Of a stretch of 64,000 nucleotides of DNA, positions 35,621-42,917 are shown in pieces. The stretch is from NCBI GenBank assembly GCA_017508605.1, contig JAFVYN010000034.1, positions 47 through 64,046 of the forward strand, given 5' to 3'. Position 1 is the stretch's first letter; each line of letters starts with the position of its first letter. The DNA is from Clostridia bacterium. GTDB lineage: Bacteria > Bacillota > Clostridia > Oscillospirales > CAG-272. The notes beneath the pieces were generated by a model that saw only the letters and a program-made list of their open reading frames with translations, was not told where the DNA came from and ran no database searches. A program made the translations under genes and the position numbers.

Positions 35621-36787
35621 TCAGATGCCGAAGAGCGTCTTCAGCTTGGTTTCATCGATCTTCGAGCCGATCACACAAAGTCTGCCGATGATACCCGCCT
35701 TGCCGCGGCGGATGTCAGGCTCGCCGGGAACGTAGTCGAAATGGATCCACTCGCCACCGTCAGCCGAAGCCACGATACCCTTGGCGCGAAGCACCATGCC
35801 GTATGCATGTTCGTCCTCAAGCGCCTCTAAGATCTCGCGAAGGCCGTCCTCGGTAAAGGGATGCGCGGTCTCAAAACCGCAGCTTGTAAAGACCTCGTCC
35901 GCGTGATGATGGTGGTGGTGATGTCCGCAGCCGCACTCCTCTCCATCCTCATGATGGTGATGATGTCCGTAGCCGCACTCCTCGCCATCCTCATGATGGT
36001 GGTGATGGCCGCAACCGCATTCCTCTCCATCCTCATGGTGGTGTTGATGTCCGCAACCGCACTCCTCGCCGTCCTCATGGTGGTGATGGTGTCCGCAACC
36101 GCATTCTTCGCCATCCTCATGATGGTGGTGATGTCCGTGATGGCGGTGATGCTCTTCCAGTGCCGCAAGCTCCTCGGTAAGAGTTGAGCGCTTTTCCATC
36201 GCGGCAAGAATATCCTCGCCCGAAAGCAGGTCCCAATCGGTCGAAACCAGTACGGCATCAGGATTATGCTCACGCACAAGCGCAATCGAAACCGCAAGCT
36301 TGGCTTCCGAAAGACCGTTCACGTGGCTGAAAATGATCGCGCCTGCCGACTCGATCTGATCGTTAAAGAACTCACCGAAATTCTTCATATACATCTTGCA
36401 CTTCTTGGCATCCACAACCGCGACCGTGCCGTTCAGAAGAAGACGCTCATCGTGAAGACCTTCCACCGCGCGGATGATATCGGAAAGCTTGCCGACACCG
36501 GACGGCTCAATGATAATGCGGTCAGGGGTATAGGTCTCGATGACCTCGGAAAGCGCTTTGCCGAAATCACCGACAAGAGAGCAACAGATACAGCCCGAGT
36601 TCATCTCGTTGACCGTAATACCCGCATCGGCAAGAAAACCGCCGTCAATACCGATCTCGCCGAATTCATTCTCAATGAGAACGACCTTTTCGCCCGCGTA
36701 GATCTCCTTAATGAGCTTCTTGATCAGCGTGGTCTTACCCGCGCCCAAAAAACCGGAAAAAATGTCAACCTTGATCTGTTTTGTCAT
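35621..36787 (-). CDS. CobW-family metallochaperone GTPase with an internal His/Cys/Glu-rich repeat array
   Basis: P-loop GFLGAGKTT, the CxCC motif (SGCICCS) and the CobW C-domain are present. Residues 213-295 read HHRHHG(HHHHHEDGEECGCG)x5 HHHHHHH. Confidence 0.88.
   Translation of the reverse strand: MTKQIKVDIFSGFLGAGKTTLIKKLIKEIYAGEKVVLIENEFGEIGIDGGFLADAGITVNEMNSGCICCSLVGDFGKALSEVIETYTPDRIIIEPSGVGKLSDIIRAVEGLHDERLLLNGTVAVVDAKKCKMYMKNFGEFFNDQIESAGAIIFSHVNGLSEAKLAVSIALVREHNPDAVLVSTDWDLLSGEDILAAMEKRSTLTEELAALEEHHRHHGHHHHHEDGEECGCGHHHHHEDGEECGCGHQHHHEDGEECGCGHHHHHEDGEECGYGHHHHHEDGEECGCGHHHHHHHADEVFTSCGFETAHPFTEDGLREILEALEDEHAYGMVLRAKGIVASADGGEWIHFDYVPGEPDIRRGKAGIIGRLCVIGSKIDETKLKTLFGI
35903..36151 (-). 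repeat. Five tandem 42-bp in-frame repeats encoding HHHHHEDGEECG(C/Y)G
   Basis: The near-identical unit ...GTGATGTCCGCARCCGCAYTCCTCKCCRTCCTCATGRTGGTG... is read directly in the sequence. Confidence 0.9.
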
Positions 36788-37064: not shown

Positions 37065-39254
37065 ATGTCATCTTTTTCCTATAAGACCCGCGGCAATTCC
37101 TCGCCCCAGGGCAAATCAAAGGTCTATTTCGCTTGCCATCCCGAGGATCTCCACCTTTTCGAAGCCATTTCCGACGATATCCTACGCGAGGTCAACTGCG
37201 CCGTGTTTTATCACAACTCCCCCATCGAAAACGAGAAAGAGCATCTCCGCGACCTTTCAGAGATGAACGTAATCGTCATCCCCATCACCACGAAATTTCT
37301 CACCACCCCCTCTGCCGCGCGCGATATTGAAATTCCCTTCTCCCAACAAAAGCATATCCCCGTTCTTCCCTTGATGCAGGAGCCGGGGCTTGTTGACGTT
37401 TTCAACAAGGTCTTGGGTGACATCCAGTTTCTCGATAAGAGTGCCCGCGACGATACCGCCATCTCCTACGAGGAAAAATTCAAGAACTTCCTCACCTCGA
37501 TTCTCGTCGGGGACGAGCTTGCCGAAGAGATCCGCAATGCTTTTGACGCCTACATCTTCCTCTCTTACCGCAAGAAAGACCGCGCCTACGCCCAGGAGCT
37601 GATGCGCCTCATCCACGAAAACGATTTCTGCCGTGATGTCGCGATCTGGTACGATGAATTCCTCATCCCCGGCGAAAACTTCAATAATACCATCGCCGAC
37701 GCCCTTCAAAAAAGCAAGCTCTTCGCCCTTGCCGTCACACCAAACCTTCTGGAAGACCCCAACTACGTCATGACCACCGAATACCCGATGGCAAAGAACG
37801 CGGGCAAGGAGATCCTTGCCGCCGAGCTTGTTCCGACCGACAAGGAGGCGCTCGCAAACGCCTATCCCGATCTTCCGCGCACCGTCAATACCGCCGATCC
37901 CGAAAGCCTTTGCGACGGTCTTCGCGATGCTTTTCAGTGGGTCATGCTGCGTGATCACGATGATGACCCCAAACACAACTACTTCATCGGTCTTGCATAC
38001 CTCTCGGGTATCGACGTTGAAAAGAACCCCGAGCGCGCCCTCTCCATGCTCACCTTCGCCGCCGCATCGGGGCTTCCCGAAGCCTGTGAAAAGCTCGTTT
38101 CGATGTATAAAACCGGAGAAGGCGTCAAGCGAGACTACGAAACGGCGATCCGTTGGCAAGAAAAACTCGTCGGGATCCGTGAAGACCTCTTTCAGAAGAA
38201 CAAAAACGAGGACACCGCAGGAGACTGTCTCAGCGCAAGATCCAATCTCGCCGATTGCTATGAGGCGGTTTCGGATTATACCAAAGCCAAAGCCTCCGTT
38301 CTTGAGCTTCTGGTATGGATCGACACCATAGAGGACACCGTCAGCGACACCTTCCTCGACCGTAACCGCGCTTCTCTTTACGGAAAACTCGGATATTACA
38401 GTCAACATACGGGCGATATCGAAGGAGCAAACCGCTATTATGATGCCATGAAGCATCACAGCGAGCGTCTTCAGAAAAGCAGCGAGATGGAATCCGAGAG
38501 GATCCGTGACTTTTCACTTGCGTGGCTTGAAGAGGCGCGAAACGGGGAGGAATTTTCTCTGCCCGACGAGATCTGGAACGATCTTGCGGCACTCTTTCTC
38601 TCGTCCGCCGACGATTACCGCATCTACGCACGCCGCGAGCTGGCACAGTGCTATACCGCCCTCGGACTCACCGCGCTGGAAGAAAGCGACACCGAAACCG
38701 CCGCGCATTACTTTACGGAGGCACTCTTAATCACCGAAGAGATCGCCGACCGCTTCACCGATGCGCATTCCCAAAAAGCCGATCTTATCCGTGAGATCGC
38801 CATTCTTCACTGCTATCTCGGTGATATCGACAAGCTCAAAGCACGCTATGACGAAGCCTACGGGCGTTTTGAGAAAGCGAACGCGCTCTTTCTGACACTC
38901 GCCTCGGGGCAGGAGCTTCCTTACGATATCGCGACGGTATGGCACCGTATGGCGGGTATTCACGAAAAAAAAGGAGAGTACGATGCGGCGCTTGACTTAA
39001 AGCTTCGCTCTCTTTCCTTAGCACAGGACTGCGCCGAGAAGACCGGTACGGTACAGGCATACGAAACCCTTGCGGCATCACACGGAACACTTGCTTTTCT
39101 CTGTCGGGATCTCGGCAAGACCGAACAGGCGCGCTTTCACGCAATGGCTTCTCAGGAGATCATCGAAACCTGTCTGTCAAACCGACATGAGCTGCCGCCC
39201 GCTGTCAAAAGCTTTTACGATGCCATCCGCCGACTGGTCGATTCCCTGACGTAA
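37065..39254 (+). CDS. Tandem TIR-like domain protein with Sel1 and TPR repeats (729 aa, cytoplasmic)
   Basis: Domain 1 (aa ~18-105) reads KVYFACHPEDL...VIVIPITTKFLTTPSAARDIEIPF. Domain 2 (aa ~161-255) reads AYIFLSYRKKDRAYAQELMRLI..VAIWYDEFLIPGENF..SKLFALAVTPNLLEDPNYVMTTEYPMA. Sel1-type units read YFIGLAYLSGIDVEKNPERALSMLTFAAASGLPEACEKLVSMYKTGEGVKRDYETAIRWQEKL. About 350 aa of TPR-like helices follow. Confidence 0.8.
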   Translation: MSSFSYKTRGNSSPQGKSKVYFACHPEDLHLFEAISDDILREVNCAVFYHNSPIENEKEHLRDLSEMNVIVIPITTKFLTTPSAARDIEIPFSQQKHIPVLPLMQEPGLVDVFNKVLGDIQFLDKSARDDTAISYEEKFKNFLTSILVGDELAEEIRNAFDAYIFLSYRKKDRAYAQELMRLIHENDFCRDVAIWYDEFLIPGENFNNTIADALQKSKLFALAVTPNLLEDPNYVMTTEYPMAKNAGKEILAAELVPTDKEALANAYPDLPRTVNTADPESLCDGLRDAFQWVMLRDHDDDPKHNYFIGLAYLSGIDVEKNPERALSMLTFAAASGLPEACEKLVSMYKTGEGVKRDYETAIRWQEKLVGIREDLFQKNKNEDTAGDCLSARSNLADCYEAVSDYTKAKASVLELLVWIDTIEDTVSDTFLDRNRASLYGKLGYYSQHTGDIEGANRYYDAMKHHSERLQKSSEMESERIRDFSLAWLEEARNGEEFSLPDEIWNDLAALFLSSADDYRIYARRELAQCYTALGLTALEESDTETAAHYFTEALLITEEIADRFTDAHSQKADLIREIAILHCYLGDIDKLKARYDEAYGRFEKANALFLTLASGQELPYDIATVWHRMAGIHEKKGEYDAALDLKLRSLSLAQDCAEKTGTVQAYETLAASHGTLAFLCRDLGKTEQARFHAMASQEIIETCLSNRHELPPAVKSFYDAIRRLVDSLT

Positions 39255-39257
39255 AAC

Positions 39258-39295
39258 ATCCCCATCCGCAAGTTTTCAAGCTTACGGATGGGGAT
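39258..39295. terminator. Terminator hairpin between convergent genes
   Basis: ATCCCCATCCG-(16 nt)-CGGATGGGGAT, with AAAA upstream and a T-rich stretch downstream. Confidence 0.6.
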
Positions 39296-39298
39296 ACT

Positions 39299-39508
39299 TT
39301 ATTTGAAAAATCTCTTCAGCCTGTGGCGGAAGCGGAGCATATAGGTGAGTGTCAGACGCTTGATGAGAATATCAAAGAGCCAGAAGGAAAGATTGGCGAT
39401 CACGTAATAGAAAACGAGAAGCCAGCCCGCAAGATCCTCGACGCCGAACAGAAAGCGCGCGAGGAGAAGGGCTGCCGTCAGAGCGGCGTTGAAATAGACA
39501 AGCTTCAA
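39299..39508 (-). CDS. Small integral membrane protein
   Basis: 69 aa with two hydrophobic helices and a basic C-terminus. It begins 6 nt after the preceding ORF. Confidence 0.4.
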   Translation of the reverse strand: MKLVYFNAALTAALLLARFLFGVEDLAGWLLVFYYVIANLSFWLFDILIKRLTLTYMLRFRHRLKRFFK

Positions 39509-39514
39509 TAAAAC

Positions 39515-39814
39515 CTAAACAAGCCTTGGGGTTTTATCAAAAAAGCGCTTGATCAAGGGATACAGCCCCGTGAACACAAGATAGACCGCCGCAATGAATT
39601 TGCTGGGCAACAAGAGAAGGGAGAGAAAGGAGGTGGCGGCATAGATCATAAAGCCGTACCGATCCCCAAGCTCGATCATAGCGAGCAGTAGGATGGCGGA
39701 GGCAAACATCGAGATCGTGAGATCGGCAACCTCAAAGAGCGAGGCGAGTGACAGAATCGCCACGCTGAGCGCCGTAAACAGCGCTGAATAGGTGATCTTT
39801 TTCGTGGGCTTCAT
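39515..39814 (-). CDS. Small integral membrane protein (3 predicted TM helices)
   Basis: 99 aa. It starts 7 nt after the J-protein stop, suggesting co-transcription. Confidence 0.5.
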   Translation of the reverse strand: MKPTKKITYSALFTALSVAILSLASLFEVADLTISMFASAILLLAMIELGDRYGFMIYAATSFLSLLLLPSKFIAAVYLVFTGLYPLIKRFFDKTPRLV

Positions 39815-39821
39815 ACAACCC

Positions 39822-40427
39822 TCAGCAGCAACGGATCAGATCGCCGCCCATACATTCACAGCAGCAGTCGGCACAGATCAGCCCCGAGCAGATATCACAA
39901 TCCGAGCATCCGCCCGAACGGTGACGGGAATAGCTGTCACTGCGCATATTGGCAGTCGCCATGCGCATGCTTTCGAGCGCCTCACGGTATTCGCGGTTGT
40001 TCGGGTCTTCACGGCAAGCCGATTCCAGCATCCGCATGGCATCGAGATACCGTCCCATGCGCATAAAGAGGACGCCCTTCAAAAAGAGCCATTCGGCGCC
40101 CCTCTCGTTGTAGGGAATGCCCTCAAGCAGACGGTCTGCCTCGGAAATGCGGTTCTGATTCAGCATCACGCGGACCGTGGCGTAAATACTGTCCCCATTG
40201 TCATCGCGCGTTTCGGATGCTCCCTGATAGCCCTCTTCCCGCCACCGCTTCACGGTCTCATACGCCTGGTTGATCTCTTTCATCTTTTCGGCATAGGCAT
40301 CGCGCATTGTCTCATCCTGACAGTTGTCGGGATGATAGCGCCTTGCGAGATCGTGGTATGCCTTCCTGATCTCGGCATCGGTCGCATTCGGCGATACGCC
40401 AAGAATGTCATAAGGCTGATAGGTCAT
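39822..40427 (-). CDS. J-domain protein with a TPR-like middle and a C-terminal cysteine string
   Basis: J-domain YDILGVSPNATDAEIRKAYHDLARRYHPD (HPD present). The last 28 aa, GGCSDCDICSGLICADCCCECMGGDLIRCC, contain 10 Cys. Confidence 0.85.
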   Translation of the reverse strand: MTYQPYDILGVSPNATDAEIRKAYHDLARRYHPDNCQDETMRDAYAEKMKEINQAYETVKRWREEGYQGASETRDDNGDSIYATVRVMLNQNRISEADRLLEGIPYNERGAEWLFLKGVLFMRMGRYLDAMRMLESACREDPNNREYREALESMRMATANMRSDSYSRHRSGGCSDCDICSGLICADCCCECMGGDLIRCC

Positions 40428-41317
40428 AAGTCCTCCTTCCGGTTTTCCCGTAACAGTTCGACACGTTTTTTCTGATAAATGATCTCCCGCGATACGTCGG
40501 GAAGACCCAGCCGCAGAAGATTGTCAAGGATCTCATAGATCCCCCGATCCTTCACCGAAAGTCCGTCAAGCGTCCGTGACGCCTCGACCATTTCAAGATC
40601 AAGCGCCGTCACGAGCCGATGGCAGAACGCTTCGTCCTCAAGATCCTCGCCGCTTAAAACAAGGGGATTGTAGCGCCCCTTCTTTCGATCCTCCACACGG
40701 TCGGCGTAGGCATCGAGAATATAAATAAAGCGTCCCACACGGTAGCCGATCTCATACAAGGCAGCCTTCACTTCATCGGACAGGATATGTCCCCCGTCAT
40801 AGCAAAAGACCTCGCCGAGAAGCGCGCCGAAGCATGCCGCCCCTTCATACACGTCCTGAGAGCCGTTTGCCTCGCAGGTCGAGAGCTGCGAAAGCTTTTC
40901 ACTCACCGTTTTCGCAAGCGCGGGAATGGGCGCGTGCTTCATCGCCTTATCAGCACCCCTTGCCATCAGCCTTGCGCAAAGCCGACGGATTCCCCGCTCA
41001 TCCGATATGTCATCGCGCAGCTTTTCATATAAAAGGATCGCCGAAACGCTTGCGGTATAGCGAAGGCTTTCGGAGGCGTCGACCGTCAGACAACCCTTCA
41101 GGGGGTGAATGGGACAGCGTTTTTTCTGAAAGCACGCCCTCTCGCCCGTTACTCCCAGTCGGATCAGGGCAAGAAGCACCATGTCATAGCTGAGCGAATA
41201 GCGAAGCCGACGGGAGAGCTTTTTCTGATGGTGACACAGCCCACAGTAGACCGCGCGGTAAAACTCGTATTCCTTTACACGCAGATCGCCCCTTCGCACC
41301 TTCACGTAGCCGAACAC
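40424..41317 (-). CDS. DUF5685-like protein (recognised from memory of the FGYV...YCGLC N-terminus)
   Basis: Probable GTG start at 41317 (..GGGGTGAAGATT GTG TTC GGC TAC GTG..), giving VFGYVKVRRGDLRVKEYEFYRAVYCGLCHHQKKLS. It overlaps the J-protein start by 4 nt (ATGA). The track start at 41398 adds 27 aa. Confidence 0.55.
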   Translation of the reverse strand: MFGYVKVRRGDLRVKEYEFYRAVYCGLCHHQKKLSRRLRYSLSYDMVLLALIRLGVTGERACFQKKRCPIHPLKGCLTVDASESLRYTASVSAILLYEKLRDDISDERGIRRLCARLMARGADKAMKHAPIPALAKTVSEKLSQLSTCEANGSQDVYEGAACFGALLGEVFCYDGGHILSDEVKAALYEIGYRVGRFIYILDAYADRVEDRKKGRYNPLVLSGEDLEDEAFCHRLVTALDLEMVEASRTLDGLSVKDRGIYEILDNLLRLGLPDVSREIIYQKKRVELLRENRKEDL

Positions 41318-41489
41318 AATCTTCACCCCATTTTCGCCCGAATTCTTGACAAGACATAAAAAATTTGTTATACTGAATGTAGTATGCGGTACTGTCACCG
41401 TATACCGAATTTTCTATAGTGTAACATAAAGTTGTGTCCAAGTTTTGTCCGTATCGTGAACAAAACGTGAACACGAAAAAGGAGTACCC

Positions 41490-42197
41490 ATGCCCAAGCT
41501 CTATATGGCGGGTCTTGTCATGGACGTTTGTCACGACAACCCGATCCTGAATCGGCAGATCGCCGATTATCTCACCGACAAGGACCCCGATTTCACCGTC
41601 GACCTTGATCGCTCCTATATCGAAAAAGAGATCGAGGAGGAGGTCAGAAACGATCTCGCCTTCCCACCGTCCTACAGTGAATATCTCGCCATTTACCGCT
41701 TTATTGCCACGAAGATCCTCGATTATGACGGCTTTCTGATGCACGGCTCCGCGATCGCGAAGGACGGCAGGGCTTACCTCTTCTGCGCGCCGAGCGGCAC
41801 GGGAAAAAGCACGCATACCCGTCTTTGGCGTGAGGTCTTTCCCGATACGATCATGATCAACGATGACAAGCCCATCATCCGAAAGCTTGCGGGGGAATAT
41901 CTCGCCTGCGGTACACCCTGGAGCGGCAAGCATGACCTCGACACCAATGTCTCGCTCCCCCTCAGGGGCATCGTCATCCTCGCAAGAGGAGAGAGCAACT
42001 ATATCGAGCGCGTGCGTCCCGAAACGGTGCTGGGGCTTTTGTTCAATCAGATCTTCCGCCCCTCACAGGATGAGGCGTATCTTAAGACCATCGACCTTGT
42101 CAGCGACATGCTCACAAGCGTTCCCGTATATAAGCTCTACTGCAATATGGACAAAGAGGCGGCACTCGTCGCCGAGAAGACCCTGTCAAACAACTGA
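41490..42197 (+). CDS. HPr-kinase-like (HprK-related) P-loop protein
   Basis: RBS AAAGGAG. FLMHGSAIAKDGRAYLFCAPSGTGKSTHTRLW resembles the HprK C-terminal kinase core and its Walker-A-like loop. Confidence 0.55.
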   Translation: MPKLYMAGLVMDVCHDNPILNRQIADYLTDKDPDFTVDLDRSYIEKEIEEEVRNDLAFPPSYSEYLAIYRFIATKILDYDGFLMHGSAIAKDGRAYLFCAPSGTGKSTHTRLWREVFPDTIMINDDKPIIRKLAGEYLACGTPWSGKHDLDTNVSLPLRGIVILARGESNYIERVRPETVLGLLFNQIFRPSQDEAYLKTIDLVSDMLTSVPVYKLYCNMDKEAALVAEKTLSNN

Positions 42198-42211
42198 AAG
42201 GAGATCTCAGT

Positions 42212-42484
42212 ATGAAGATCAAGCAAGGATTCATCTTAAGAAAATGCGGCGAGGCGGACATTGTTGTGCCGATCGGCGCCAACGTCGAAAAATACAAGAA
42301 TATCATGATCACCCTCTCGGGTACCTCCCGTATGCTCTGGGAGCAGCTCGTCAAGGGCTGTGACGAGGAAGCCCTCGTTACCCTGCTCCTCACCACCTTT
42401 GAGGATGCGCCCGAGGACGTTGTCAGAGCCGACGTCTCGAGATTTCTGAAAACACTTGCCAAGGCAGGACTTCTCGATGAGTGA
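42212..42484 (+). CDS. PqqD-family protein (RiPP recognition element-like)
   Basis: 90 aa. The pattern GFILRKCGEADIVVPIG...ITLSGTSRMLWEQLVKGCDEEALVTLLLTTFEDAPEDVVRADVSRFLKTLAKAGLL is typical of PqqD/RRE proteins. Confidence 0.65.
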   Translation: MKIKQGFILRKCGEADIVVPIGANVEKYKNIMITLSGTSRMLWEQLVKGCDEEALVTLLLTTFEDAPEDVVRADVSRFLKTLAKAGLLDE

Positions 42485-42917
42485 AGCTTATGAGGACGTG
42501 CTGAAGCGAAACGGCACGCTGGTCTTCACCCCGGGCGGCACCTCCATGCAGCCCCTGCTTCGCCATCATGAAAACCCCGTGGTGCTACTTCCCGTCGAGG
42601 GCAGGCTGAAACGGGGGGACGTTCCCTTTTACAAGCGCGCCAACGGTCAGTACGTGCTGCACCGTATCATCCGTGTACATAAGGATGGCTACGATTGCTG
42701 TGGCGATAACCAGACGGCGCTCGAAAAGGGCGTCACCGATGACATGATCTTTGCCAGAATGGTTGGCTTTTATCAGGGAGAGCGCTATATTTCCTGCGAC
42801 GATCCCGCCATCGTCCGTTACAGCCGCCGCCGTATGGCATCAAGACCGATGCGCCACATCATCGCAAGAACCCGCTATCTCTTCGGGCGTGTTTTCAAGC
42901 CAAAACACCGCGATTAA
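42477..42917 (+). CDS. S24/S26-type serine peptidase-like protein
   Basis: The nucleophile motif GGTSMQP(L) is present and the size fits (~146 aa). The ATG at 42477 overlaps the PqqD stop, indicating translational coupling. Confidence 0.6.
   Translation: MSEAYEDVLKRNGTLVFTPGGTSMQPLLRHHENPVVLLPVEGRLKRGDVPFYKRANGQYVLHRIIRVHKDGYDCCGDNQTALEKGVTDDMIFARMVGFYQGERYISCDDPAIVRYSRRRMASRPMRHIIARTRYLFGRVFKPKHRD

Follow-up and report, generated by a model that had tools for sequence, protein, structure and literature searches.

J-domain proteins decide where Hsp70 works and on what, and the class C J-proteins of bacteria are mostly unstudied. The locus described here raises the question of what such a protein does when the strongest constraint falls on a cysteine string at its C-terminus and when it is coupled to a protein with a predicted prenyltransferase-like fold. 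It lies in a window of 64,000 nt (the whole stretch of DNA analysed) from a Clostridia bacterium, contig JAFVYN010000034.1. No publication on the three-gene module was found in the literature. The gene set may tether an Hsp70 chaperone to the membrane in bacteria, and the reading that we favour, tentatively and with a probability of roughly 0.3, is that a DUF5685 protein S-prenylates the cysteine tail of the J-protein, thereby tethering this DnaK-recruiting protein to the membrane. New in this study is the assignment, from a structural model, of a likely fold and a candidate active site to DUF5685.

A conserved three-gene operon

The operon comprises three genes, in the order DUF5685, J-protein, membrane protein, all on the minus strand of the window:

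40424..41317, minus strand: DUF5685 gene, 297 aa, GTG start; Pfam PF18937, E 7e-65
39822..40427, minus strand: J-protein gene, 201 aa, class C J-domain protein
39299..39814, minus strand: membrane-protein gene, 171 aa, six hydrophobic segments, TAG-interrupted
39253..39300, minus strand: intrinsic terminator, 20-bp stem followed by a U run
41318..41489, unstranded: divergent intergenic region between the DUF5685 gene and a ScmC-like gene, presumed promoter region

The upstream gene, originally described as DUF5685-like with a YCGLCHH motif, matches PF18937 with 219-223 bits (cut-off 26.7) over profile positions 1-268 of 272 and contains the sequence VYCGLCHH; the same profile is matched by 42 of 42 aligned homologues. 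Its longest open reading frame runs to 41398, and the GTG start was taken because the MFGYV N-terminus is invariant in homologues. The ATG of the J gene overlaps the DUF5685 stop codon (ATGA at 40424-40427), the J gene being translationally coupled to DUF5685, and 7 nt separate the end of the J gene from the next ATG at 39814; the 4-nt overlap and the 7-nt gap had both been predicted and were confirmed.

The original prediction of a tight operon holds, but not its count of four genes, since the two small polytopic membrane proteins with 6-nt spacing proved to be one 171-aa gene split by an in-frame TAG. The two open reading frames, 39515-39814 (99 aa) and 39299-39508 (69 aa), share a frame and are separated by one TAG at 39515-39517, which is codon 100 and falls between the fourth and fifth hydrophobic segments. 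A single 171-aa gene is called in 8 other metagenome assemblies of the same species, and TTG replaces the TAG in all five aligned same-species assemblies, which are otherwise identical over 91 nt; according to the same-species contigs, the ancestral codon is thus TTG (Leu). Eighteen contigs carry the intact form, and the 99-aa form is confined to the contig of this MAG, whose GenBank proteins here are MBR2986705-7; relatives of other species have a single hydrophobic open reading frame of about 172-195 aa behind the J gene. The shared frame, the intact gene in same-species assemblies and the single frame in relatives lead to an operon of three genes, in which the TAG is a strain-specific nonsense change or an assembly error. 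The terminator begins inside the stop codon of this gene and has a minimum free energy of -29.1 kcal/mol (z -5.3), with none of 200 shuffles folding as well.

The membrane protein resembles ECF S components and DUF2232 proteins in size (about 170-190 aa), in its six hydrophobic segments and in a weak profile similarity (for the N-terminal half, PF07155, E 1.4e-3; TIGR04518, E 2.7e-5). It differs from them in that all its scores fall below the curated cut-offs: ECF S component models (PF07155, PF12822, TIGR04518) gave 14-24 bits against cut-offs of 26.7-60. Among 22 homologues, one matched ECF_trnsprt and four DUF2232, and the protein had no sequence match in the PDB. No cluster of ABC ATPase and T-component genes was found among the conserved neighbours in 80 loci, though group II ECF modules are encoded elsewhere in the genome.

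The J-protein is encoded in at least 580 species genomes, and its best 120 homologues are all bacterial and 190-225 aa long. Carriers include hundreds of species of gut and rumen Clostridia, among them the cultured strains Pusillibacter faecalis MM59 and Subdoligranulum variabile. DUF5685 lies immediately upstream of the J gene in all 80 loci examined, an arrangement far beyond chance, and the pairing was also seen in loci reached from the DUF5685 side; synteny outside this genome, on which the original prediction had staked the module, thus holds wherever it was examined. The third gene encodes a membrane protein in most loci and is missing in P. faecalis and in one other locus.

That the genes form one functional unit is very probable. 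Were they mere neighbours, the J gene would encode a general-purpose co-chaperone of DnaK whose tail is a structural zinc knot with no specific partner. The operon does sit among housekeeping genes, its neighbours in relatives being uvrA/B, cmk, plsC, yicC and gmk. We nevertheless consider this explanation scarcely credible, since the 80/80 synteny spans families at 26-45% identity, 40 of the 68 loci measured have overlapping stop and start codons, the overlap being 4 nt in 22, and an operon-specific upstream motif, TTTACA-N5-TTCA, occurs in 34 of 59 loci.

This motif, known from other species, is absent from 41318..41489 of the window, where the minus strand yielded no sigma-70-like site and no Rfam match was obtained, neither to a riboswitch nor to another RNA element. 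The suggestion that the operon might be expressed during sporulation found no support, as regular expressions for sporulation sigma-factor promoters gave no match upstream of the operon in 59 loci, a weak test. The operon diverges from a ScmC-like/PqqD cassette in the window, as had been noted, but this is not a general link: only the closest relatives (L001, L093 and contigs of the same species) share it, and none of the other 79 genome loci does.

Two other origins were considered and set aside. A defence function was suggested by an adjoining gene for a TIR protein; this gene is not conserved with the operon, and the three operon proteins had no significant PADLOC match, a weak one through TPR (E 0.002) being confined to the J-protein. 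An origin from mobile elements was rejected because the plasmid matches are large secondary replicons of 387-504 kb, carrying housekeeping genes where annotated (Pusillibacter faecalis). Two further matches, labelled 'Bacteriophage sp.', are unverified and unannotated virome scaffolds.

The J-protein and its cysteine tail

The J-protein (GenBank MBR2986706.1, 'J domain-containing protein') is composed of three parts:

40236..40427, minus strand: J domain, residues 1-64; Pfam DnaJ, E 1.5e-17; HPD at 40326-40334
39939..40190, minus strand: TPR-like helical domain, residues 80-163; TPR_19/TPR_14, pLDDT >90
39825..39908, minus strand: C-terminal Cys tail, residues 174-201; CSDCDICSGLICADCCCECMGGDLIRCC

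This arrangement, in which a J domain with its HPD precedes a TPR-like middle and a Cys-rich C-terminus, agrees with the predicted one. The HPD motif, at residues 32-34, is kept in 81 of 82 orthologues, and Foldseek matched the domain to the J domains of DnaJ, Tid1 and Ydj1. The middle domain scored 29.6 bits with TPR_19 (cut-off 25) and 23.5 bits, equal to the cut-off, with TPR_14, and its structural matches were the TPR domains of PcrH, Cyp40, PP5 and Sec72 together with designed TPRs. The protein is not a class A DnaJ, a type defined by a G/F region, four CxxCxGxG zinc-finger repeats and C-terminal client-binding domains, the DnaJ equivalog models covering residues 2-60 only with 56 bits against a cut-off of 377. 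The AtcJ and HscB models of NCBIfam are also limited to the J domain and score far below their cut-offs.

The tail, GGCSDCDICSGLICADCCCECMGGDLIRCC, contains 10 Cys in the last 28 residues and, as originally proposed, differs from the zinc finger of DnaJ, the CxxCxGxG motif being absent. Poor conservation among orthologues would have spoken against its importance; it is instead the best-conserved segment of the J-protein, with an identity to the window of 87%, compared with 54% in the J domain (alignment A1). In every complete tail recovered the string ends at the stop codon, and tails of the main subfamily carry 7-10 Cys plus conserved Asp, Glu and Gly and finish on -CC. The Cys positions relocate while their count is kept, and in distant members the tail is replaced by other Cys-plus-hydrophobic strings, with Leu, Met, Phe and Tyr between the Cys. 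Both features suggest selection for Cys density, not for a fixed ligand geometry, and the distant strings fit the description of a 'cysteine string'. A tail-only phmmer search of 1.84 billion representatives returned 100 matches. In most of them the tail stands at the C-terminus after remnants of a TPR domain; those that are short or unusual appear to be fragmented, frameshifted or chimerically assembled, and a stand-alone tail peptide or fusion was therefore discarded.

A cysteine-rich tail invites a different reading, in which it forms a metal-thiolate or Fe-S site and the J-protein is a specialised co-chaperone for sensing or delivering metal or redox state, on the models of HscB, DnaJ-Fer and the DnaJ zinc finger. 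DUF5685, with a putative Cys3 site of its own, and the membrane protein would then be partners or clients, DUF5685 not being a modifying enzyme. The density of 10 Cys in 28 residues, the spacings CxxCxxCxxxxC and CCCxC, and the conserved Asp, Glu and Gly between the Cys are what such a site might show; cluster ligands, too, typically change places while their number stays the same, AlphaFold2 (AF2) cannot fold the tail without a ligand (pLDDT <50 for the tail alone, which is predicted to be unstructured), and the hosts are anaerobes rich in Fe-S proteins. Proteins combining a J domain with an Fe-S cluster do exist (DnaJ-Fer, PMC3564930). Nevertheless, no Pfam or NCBIfam model matched the tail, be it ferredoxin, zinc finger or other, the protein has no ferredoxin-type 4Fe-4S domain behind its J domain as DnaJ-Fer has, residues 164-201 giving no Pfam match to Fer4, and the spacing differs from CxxCxxCxxxCP. 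The loss of Cys spacing in distant members, with Leu, Met, Phe or Tyr in between, would be unusual for a metal site, and metal binding gives no reason for a string that ends exactly at the C-terminus. We regard this reading as a serious one, though on balance doubtful; a tail that bound a metal cluster would make the protein a new metal-dependent co-chaperone.

The original prediction had also likened the protein to the eukaryotic cysteine-string protein DNAJC5 (CSP-alpha). The likeness holds for layout, an HPD-bearing J domain at the N-terminus and, behind it, a dense Cys run thought to serve membrane attachment, and the Cys-plus-hydrophobic strings of distant bacterial members are similar in composition. 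The CSP string is internal, with about 14 Cys in 24 residues and a C-terminal domain after it, and is palmitoylated by DHHC enzymes. The bacterial protein has neither an internal string of about 13-15 Cys nor a subsequent C-terminal domain nor homology to DNAJC5 outside the J domain; unlike CSP, it carries its string at the extreme C-terminus, behind a TPR-like domain, with conserved Asp, Glu and Gly and coupled to DUF5685. A true bacterial cysteine-string protein, S-acylated by an enzyme encoded elsewhere and with DUF5685 unrelated to the modification, would be favoured by this layout and by the distant hydrophobic strings. It is very unlikely, given that no DHHC palmitoyltransferase is linked to the operon (these enzymes are, to our knowledge, eukaryotic) and that the universally coupled DUF5685 would be ignored.

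A predicted isoprenoid-synthase-like fold for DUF5685

The AF2 model of DUF5685 is of high confidence (pLDDT 91.9, pTM 0.90) and predicted to be all-alpha, as in the class I isoprenoid synthase fold. Of the best 50 Foldseek matches in the PDB, 47 are trans-isoprenyl diphosphate synthases (polyprenyl, GGPP, FPP) or MoeN5, two are trichodiene synthase and one is an entry for digeranylgeranylglyceryl phosphate synthase. Match probabilities are near 1 for the leading entries, with TM scores of 0.45-0.55 and marginal E-values (1e-3 to 0.15). On the strength of this model, DUF5685 probably has an isoprenoid-synthase-like fold. Three conserved elements stand out:

41105..41245, minus strand: putative Cys3(His) zinc site, residues 25-71; invariant C25, C28, C68
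40997..41014, minus strand: first acidic motif, D102-D103-x-x-D106-E107; FARM-like, C-terminal end of helix 83-106
40664..40747, minus strand: second acidic motif, SARM-like; G191-x3-G195-x2-I-Y199-x2-D202-A-x2-D206-x3-D210...Y216-N217-P218

In the model, C25 and C28 (YCGLC) lie on helix 1 and C68 at the tip of a beta-hairpin, accompanied by H71, which is Asn in some members; together they form a putative Cys3(His) zinc site. In the first acidic motif, to be compared with the DDxxD of a FARM, D102 and D106 are invariant even at 26-30% identity and D103 is about 90% conserved; in the second, G195, Y199, D202, D206, D210 and N217 are invariant in A5. Overall, identity can fall to 26% without any change in the three Cys or in D102, D106, Y199, D202, D206, D210 and N217. 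The acidic motifs would lie where trans-isoprenyl diphosphate synthases bind Mg2+ and diphosphate; it is slightly more likely than not that DUF5685 binds a prenyl diphosphate. These invariant Asp motifs are left unexplained if the tail is a metal site.

Sequence comparison did not recover this relationship. Aligned by hhalign with four PDB trans-isoprenyl diphosphate synthase cores, the second motif falls on G-x2-F-Q-x2-D-D-x2-D, with the second Asp of the SARM replaced by Ala, but the alignment is not significant (P 0.026, probability 1.9%). A PDB search with the family profile gave no match, Pfam polyprenyl_synt matched 1 of 42 members (E 0.095), and profiles such as PF00348 and PF00494 did not recognise the family. 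Longer homologues contain disordered insertions only, with no extra domains.

The fold and acidic motifs would also suit an isoprenoid enzyme, be it a synthase, cyclase or transferase, acting on a small molecule or lipid. The J-protein would then bind this enzyme through its tail and TPR-like domain and serve it alone as chaperone or regulator, and uptake or retention of the hydrophobic product would fall to the membrane protein. That the pairing is strict and translation coupled implies a complex of 1:1 stoichiometry, an operon-encoded class C J-protein is known to bind its partner through a short C-terminal extension (AtcJ, PMC6715715), and the membrane protein is distantly like the small-molecule-binding ECF S components. 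A tail that binds a client should, however, co-vary with it, whereas the conservation of the tail contrasts with a mean column identity of only 35% for DUF5685 (A2), and no other isoprenoid pathway gene is consistently linked. We therefore judge this arrangement rather improbable.

Proposed tail prenylation and its relation to known systems

The original prediction had left open whether the tail is lipidated, binds metal or docks onto the membrane partners. The isoprenoid-synthase-like fold and the Asp-rich motifs of DUF5685 make lipidation the leading, testable hypothesis, although a tentative one. The operon would build a dedicated, membrane-directed device for recruiting Hsp70 (DnaK). DUF5685 would take a prenyl diphosphate, such as farnesyl or geranylgeranyl diphosphate, from the isoprenoid pathway of the cell, its Cys3 zinc site would activate a tail thiol, and one or more tail Cys would be S-prenylated, with the chemistry of the eukaryotic protein prenyltransferases on the scaffold of ComQ and PalQ. 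The lipidated tail would hold the J-protein at the membrane, bound to or adjoining the membrane protein in those operons that encode one, and the J domain would fire the DnaK ATPase on clients held by the TPR-like domain.

Several points weigh against S-prenylation. All characterised trans-IDS-like peptide prenyltransferases act on Trp (PMC13290415), and the tail has none; 8-10 Cys are many more than a prenyl anchor needs; the conserved Asp, Glu and Gly of main-subfamily tails are what a metal site might have; D103 is not invariant; and sequence profiles do not place DUF5685 in the isoprenoid synthase superfamily. That the tail is the prenyl acceptor of DUF5685 is thus possible and far from assured. 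DUF5685 could, with the same reserve, be the founding Cys-directed trans-IDS-like protein prenyltransferase and the operon a native bacterial S-prenylation system, of which no description was found in the literature searched.

Should the tail prove to be prenylated, the operon would represent the first native system known to us for Cys prenylation of proteins in bacteria, a new class of Cys-selective biocatalysts beside the Trp-selective ComQ and PalQ, and an independent invention of lipid-anchored Hsp70 targeting. A lipid-anchored J-protein would station DnaK at the membrane of gut Clostridia and would have arisen independently of its eukaryotic counterparts, farnesylated Ydj1/DNAJA and palmitoylated CSP.

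Eukaryotic precedents for lipid anchors of this kind are the farnesylated J-proteins Ydj1 and DNAJA1/2, palmitoylated CSP, and the Rab GTPases ending in -CC or -CXC. With Ydj1/DNAJA and Rab the module would share the use of end-of-chain Cys as lipid anchors, and with the farnesylated J-proteins the recruitment of a J-protein to membranes by prenylation. The enzymes are different: eukaryotic prenyltransferases are alpha-alpha barrel heterodimers that rely on CaaX or Rab-escort recognition, and they are unrelated to DUF5685.

The plant pairs OR/phytoene synthase and J20/DXS offer a parallel of another kind, a DnaJ-related, Cys-rich chaperone dedicated to an isoprenoid enzyme of class I fold. J20 hands DXS over to Hsp70, and phytoene synthase is held by OR, which has the DnaJ zinc-finger motif without a J domain and is itself a membrane protein. 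In contrast to the present module, these pairs are not operons. HscB-IscU and the AtcJ-AtcC pair of Shewanella (PMC6715715) likewise combine a short J-protein with a co-encoded partner that its C-terminal part binds, so targeting Hsp70, but their partners are unrelated to those described here and Cys strings are absent.

The trans-IDS-like peptide prenyltransferases ComQ, PalQ and the P domain of ChrPC provide the bacterial precedent, since their genes adjoin that of a ribosomal substrate, as in ComQ/ComX, and the C-terminal region of this substrate is modified (PMC13290415). DUF5685 resembles them in its predicted isoprenoid-synthase fold, its two candidate acidic motifs and the position of its gene beside that of the proposed substrate. 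Whereas those enzymes are recognisable by sequence as members of the isoprenoid synthase superfamily, DUF5685 escapes the sequence profiles and carries an extra N-terminal Cys3 module and beta-hairpin, and its proposed acceptor is a Cys on a folded protein of 200 aa with a Trp-free tail.

Organization of the operon and its surroundings

The operon lies on the minus strand and comprises the genes for a DUF5685 protein, a J-domain protein (J-protein) and a small membrane protein.

Features of the operon and flanking region (window coordinates)
35621-36787, minus strand: CobW/COG0523-type GTPase, with a tandem repeat at 35909-36137
37065-39254, plus strand: TIR, Sel1 and TPR-repeat protein of 729 aa, convergent to the operon
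39253-39300, minus strand: 20-bp hairpin and U run at the end of the operon (minimum free energy -29.1 kcal/mol, z -5.3)
39814, minus strand: start of the membrane gene, 7 nt past the J-protein stop
39822-40427, minus strand: J-protein gene, 201 aa
40424-41317, minus strand: DUF5685 gene, matching Pfam PF18937 end to end (E 7e-65)
41490-42917, plus strand: genes for ScmC/HprK-like (235 aa), PqqD-family (90 aa) and 153-aa proteins, divergent from the operon

The start of the DUF5685 gene, a GTG codon with GGGGTG just before it, is fixed by the invariant N-terminal MFGYV of its homologues. As originally predicted, its TGA and the ATG of the J-protein gene share the sequence ATGA, and the spacing to the next gene is also as described. 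The proposed four-gene unit, ending in two small membrane proteins at 6-nt spacing, is instead a three-gene unit, since the 99-aa and 69-aa ORFs form one reading frame divided by a single TAG (39515-39517, minus strand), eight further metagenome assemblies of this species, whose J-proteins are 99% identical, call a single 171-aa gene, and other species have one hydrophobic ORF of ~172-195 aa past the J gene. Five of the eight assemblies were aligned at this site, and all five carry TTG (Leu) in place of TAG, the rest of the 91 nt being identical. The intact protein was found in 18 contigs and the 99-aa product (GenBank MBR2986705.1) only in the contig of this metagenome-assembled genome (MAG). 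The TAG separates the fourth and fifth of six hydrophobic segments; it is either a strain-specific nonsense change, which would make the gene a true pseudogene, or an error in the consensus. Invariant residues of the membrane protein are E48, G83, Y85, P86, K89, D148 and Y158; its similarity to ECF S components and DUF2232 was sub-threshold, and a PDB sequence search found no relative. An Rfam search gave no match.

The flanking genes are housekeeping genes that vary by locus, including uvrA (30 loci), uvrB, cmk, plsC, yicC, gmk and a gene for a BaiN-like flavoprotein. Only in the closest relatives is the operon accompanied by the ScmC-like/PqqD cassette and the TIR protein. The divergent arrangement noted earlier holds in the window, where the cassette is on the plus strand. 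The cassette was also seen in L001 and L093, and in none of the other genome loci among the best 80; neither a precursor peptide nor a radical SAM gene was noticed in it, and its 153-aa protein has faint similarity to signal peptidase I. The TIR protein, found beside the operon only within the species, gave only weak PADLOC matches (ThsB-like TIR, E 1e-3), and for the operon PADLOC returned nothing significant (E 0.002 for the J-protein, a weak TPR match). The GTPase gene contains 5.5 copies of a 42-nt repeat encoding (HHHHHEDGEECGCG)n, and its product is 388 aa long in the window; other assemblies of this species give 415 or 442 aa, indicating that the copy number of this His/Cys-rich metal-binding insert differs between strains. 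Of 59 related loci, 34 (from L002 to L079) have a strand-specific motif, TT[TA]ACA-N5-TT[CAT]A, 60-125 nt ahead of the start codon of DUF5685 (0.22 expected in shuffles); across 799 kb of loci the motif occurs 62 times, ~40 of them at that spot. It looks like an OmpR/PhoP-type direct repeat with an 11-bp register, and is absent from the 64-kb window, the upstream region of the operon included.

The J-protein, its cysteine tail and its constant partner

The J-protein has a canonical J domain (DnaJ E 1.5e-17, HPD at residues 32-34), TPR matches in its middle and 10 Cys in its last 28 residues (CSDCDICSGLICADCCCECMGGDLIRCC), all as originally described; no CxxCxGxG repeat is present, in agreement with the proposed difference from the DnaJ zinc finger. 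AlphaFold predicted the J domain and TPR-like domain (residues 80-163) with high confidence, both folds being backed by Foldseek, and gave the tail a pLDDT below 50. Full-length NCBIfam models of DnaJ, HscB, DjlA and AtcJ match the J domain only, far under their cut-offs, and the protein is therefore assigned to class C.

The terminal Cys string is hyper-conserved. Over 26 full-length homologues (~50% identity), identity to the window sequence is 87% in the tail versus 54% in the J domain, 47% in the TPR-like domain and 19% in the linker, so the tail conservation on which the original prediction had rested its case is borne out. All complete tails recovered run right up to the stop codon, and those of the main subfamily end in -CC. 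The positions of the cysteines shift but not their number (CCCECM to CLCECC in five loci; LICADCCC to LCCADTCC; adjacent swaps in L077), compensated moves holding the count at 8-10. Shifts of 1-4 positions were observed in L008, L010, L037, L039, L093, L077 and others, for example C189 to Leu with M193 to Cys, or C188 to Thr with I184 to Cys. Distant members carry other strings rich in Cys and hydrophobic residues: MCGSNLCLPLCCLYSLCPGGYCFFC in Pusillibacter faecalis, SCCTQMLCLNLLCNCCCCGGGF in virome scaffold MT835652 and CSCCDMCTAMMCMDMCCGCGRGGC in Subdoligranulum variabile. When the tail alone was searched against 1.84 billion representative proteins, the motif turned up nowhere except after TPR remnants; the short matches look like fragments. 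With so many thiols at one end, the tail might hold a metal or Fe-S cluster, with DUF5685 as partner or client, which we consider possible but doubtful.

Relatives of the J-protein are encoded in at least 580 genomes (one per species). All of the best 80 belong to Clostridia, most of them being MAGs from gut and rumen labeled Oscillospiraceae, Acutalibacteraceae, Ruminococcaceae, Eubacteriales and a few Lachnospiraceae. In these 80 loci synteny, another point on which the prediction depended, is maintained: DUF5685 lies directly upstream of the J gene in 80/80, and a membrane-protein homologue follows in most. The gene order is no different in loci found by way of DUF5685. The DUF5685 stop and J start overlap in 40 of 68 measured loci. 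Coupling to DUF5685 is thus obligatory and the membrane-protein gene is the usual third member; that the genes have no functional link is scarcely credible. The membrane gene is absent past the J gene in P. faecalis and the MT835652 scaffold, which leaves the DUF5685/J-protein pair as the conserved core.

Cultured carriers include S. variabile and P. faecalis MM59, in whose RefSeq annotation the two genes overlap by 4 nt and are labeled "DUF5685 family protein" and "J domain-containing protein". At the latter locus (L094, NZ_AP023421.1, 4586-6508) no six-segment membrane gene follows the pair; an RseC-family small membrane protein precedes it, 5 nt away, and ispD and ispF lie on the same strand 4-5 kb upstream. 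Two unverified 'Bacteriophage sp.' virome scaffolds (MT835652.1, which is L095, and MT835850.1) carry a DUF5685 gene, with an adjoining J gene confirmed in MT835652 only; the unannotated ORFs beside the pair there look metabolic, and the pair probably belongs to bacterial DNA within the virome, not to a phage. Of 82 J genes, 81 encode HPD, the exception being S. variabile (L096, OY725846.1, 4935-5567) with NPD and a divergent tail ending GCGRGGC; the J domain of this lineage may be inactive.

The predicted fold of DUF5685

The DUF5685 model (42-sequence alignment; pLDDT 91.9, pTM 0.90) is all-alpha apart from a single beta-hairpin (residues 62-80). Solanesyl-, octaprenyl-, hexaprenyl-, geranylgeranyl- and farnesyl-diphosphate synthases or MoeN5 account for 47 of its 50 best Foldseek PDB matches, and the other three are two trichodiene synthases and one digeranylgeranylglyceryl phosphate synthase entry; for the leading matches the probability is near 1, TM 0.45-0.55 and E between 1e-3 and 0.15. 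Two acidic motifs contain residues that are invariant down to 26% identity, D102 and D106 in the first (DDxxDE ending helix 83-106) and G195, Y199, D202, D206, D210 and N217 in the second (GxxIYxxDAxxDxxxD...YNP); E149, C25, C28 and C68 are likewise invariant. In the model C25 and C28 lie on the first helix and C68, with H71, at the hairpin tip, a candidate Cys3(His) zinc site. Sequence profiles of the 42 members tied them to no known family in Pfam or a PDB profile search. Profile-profile comparison with four PDB trans-IPPS cores was not significant (probability 1.9%), its sole local alignment placing the second motif exactly on the GxxFQxxDDxxD of the synthases. Taken together, these results give good support to an isoprenoid-synthase-like fold and make prenyl-diphosphate binding plausible. 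The protein is thus a Pfam DUF5685 member and, at the level of the predicted fold, a divergent relative of trans-isoprenyl diphosphate synthases. Such a fold would also suit a small-molecule isoprenoid enzyme with the J-protein as its dedicated chaperone, as in the OR/PSY or AtcJ/AtcC pairs, an arrangement that we regard as rather unlikely.

Possible function and comparison with known systems

In the best reading, to which we assign a probability of about 30%, DUF5685 would bind a prenyl diphosphate and S-alkylate cysteines of the J-protein tail, and the modified tail would anchor the J-protein in the membrane near the product of the third gene, where it would recruit DnaK. Zinc-thiolate alkylation would offer a chemical basis, and prenylated or palmitoylated J-proteins exist in eukaryotes. 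This S-prenylation reading draws on both, on the terminal position of the string and selection on Cys density rather than fixed positions, and on the precedent of ComQ/PalQ, trans-IDS-like enzymes whose genes adjoin that of the ribosomal substrate and which so far all act on Trp (PMC13290415).

In the literature searched, DUF5685 was named only in a domain list, and neither PF18937 nor the tail motif was found. The original prediction had likened the J-protein to DNAJC5, and a palmitoylated analogue of that cysteine-string protein is very unlikely. Defining features of DNAJC5, class A DnaJ and DnaJ-Fer were looked for and are lacking in the J-protein, which thus falls outside these families. 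The module would be categorically new only if Cys-prenylation were demonstrated; among known systems, its way of working resembles that of class C J-domain proteins that have a dedicated partner.
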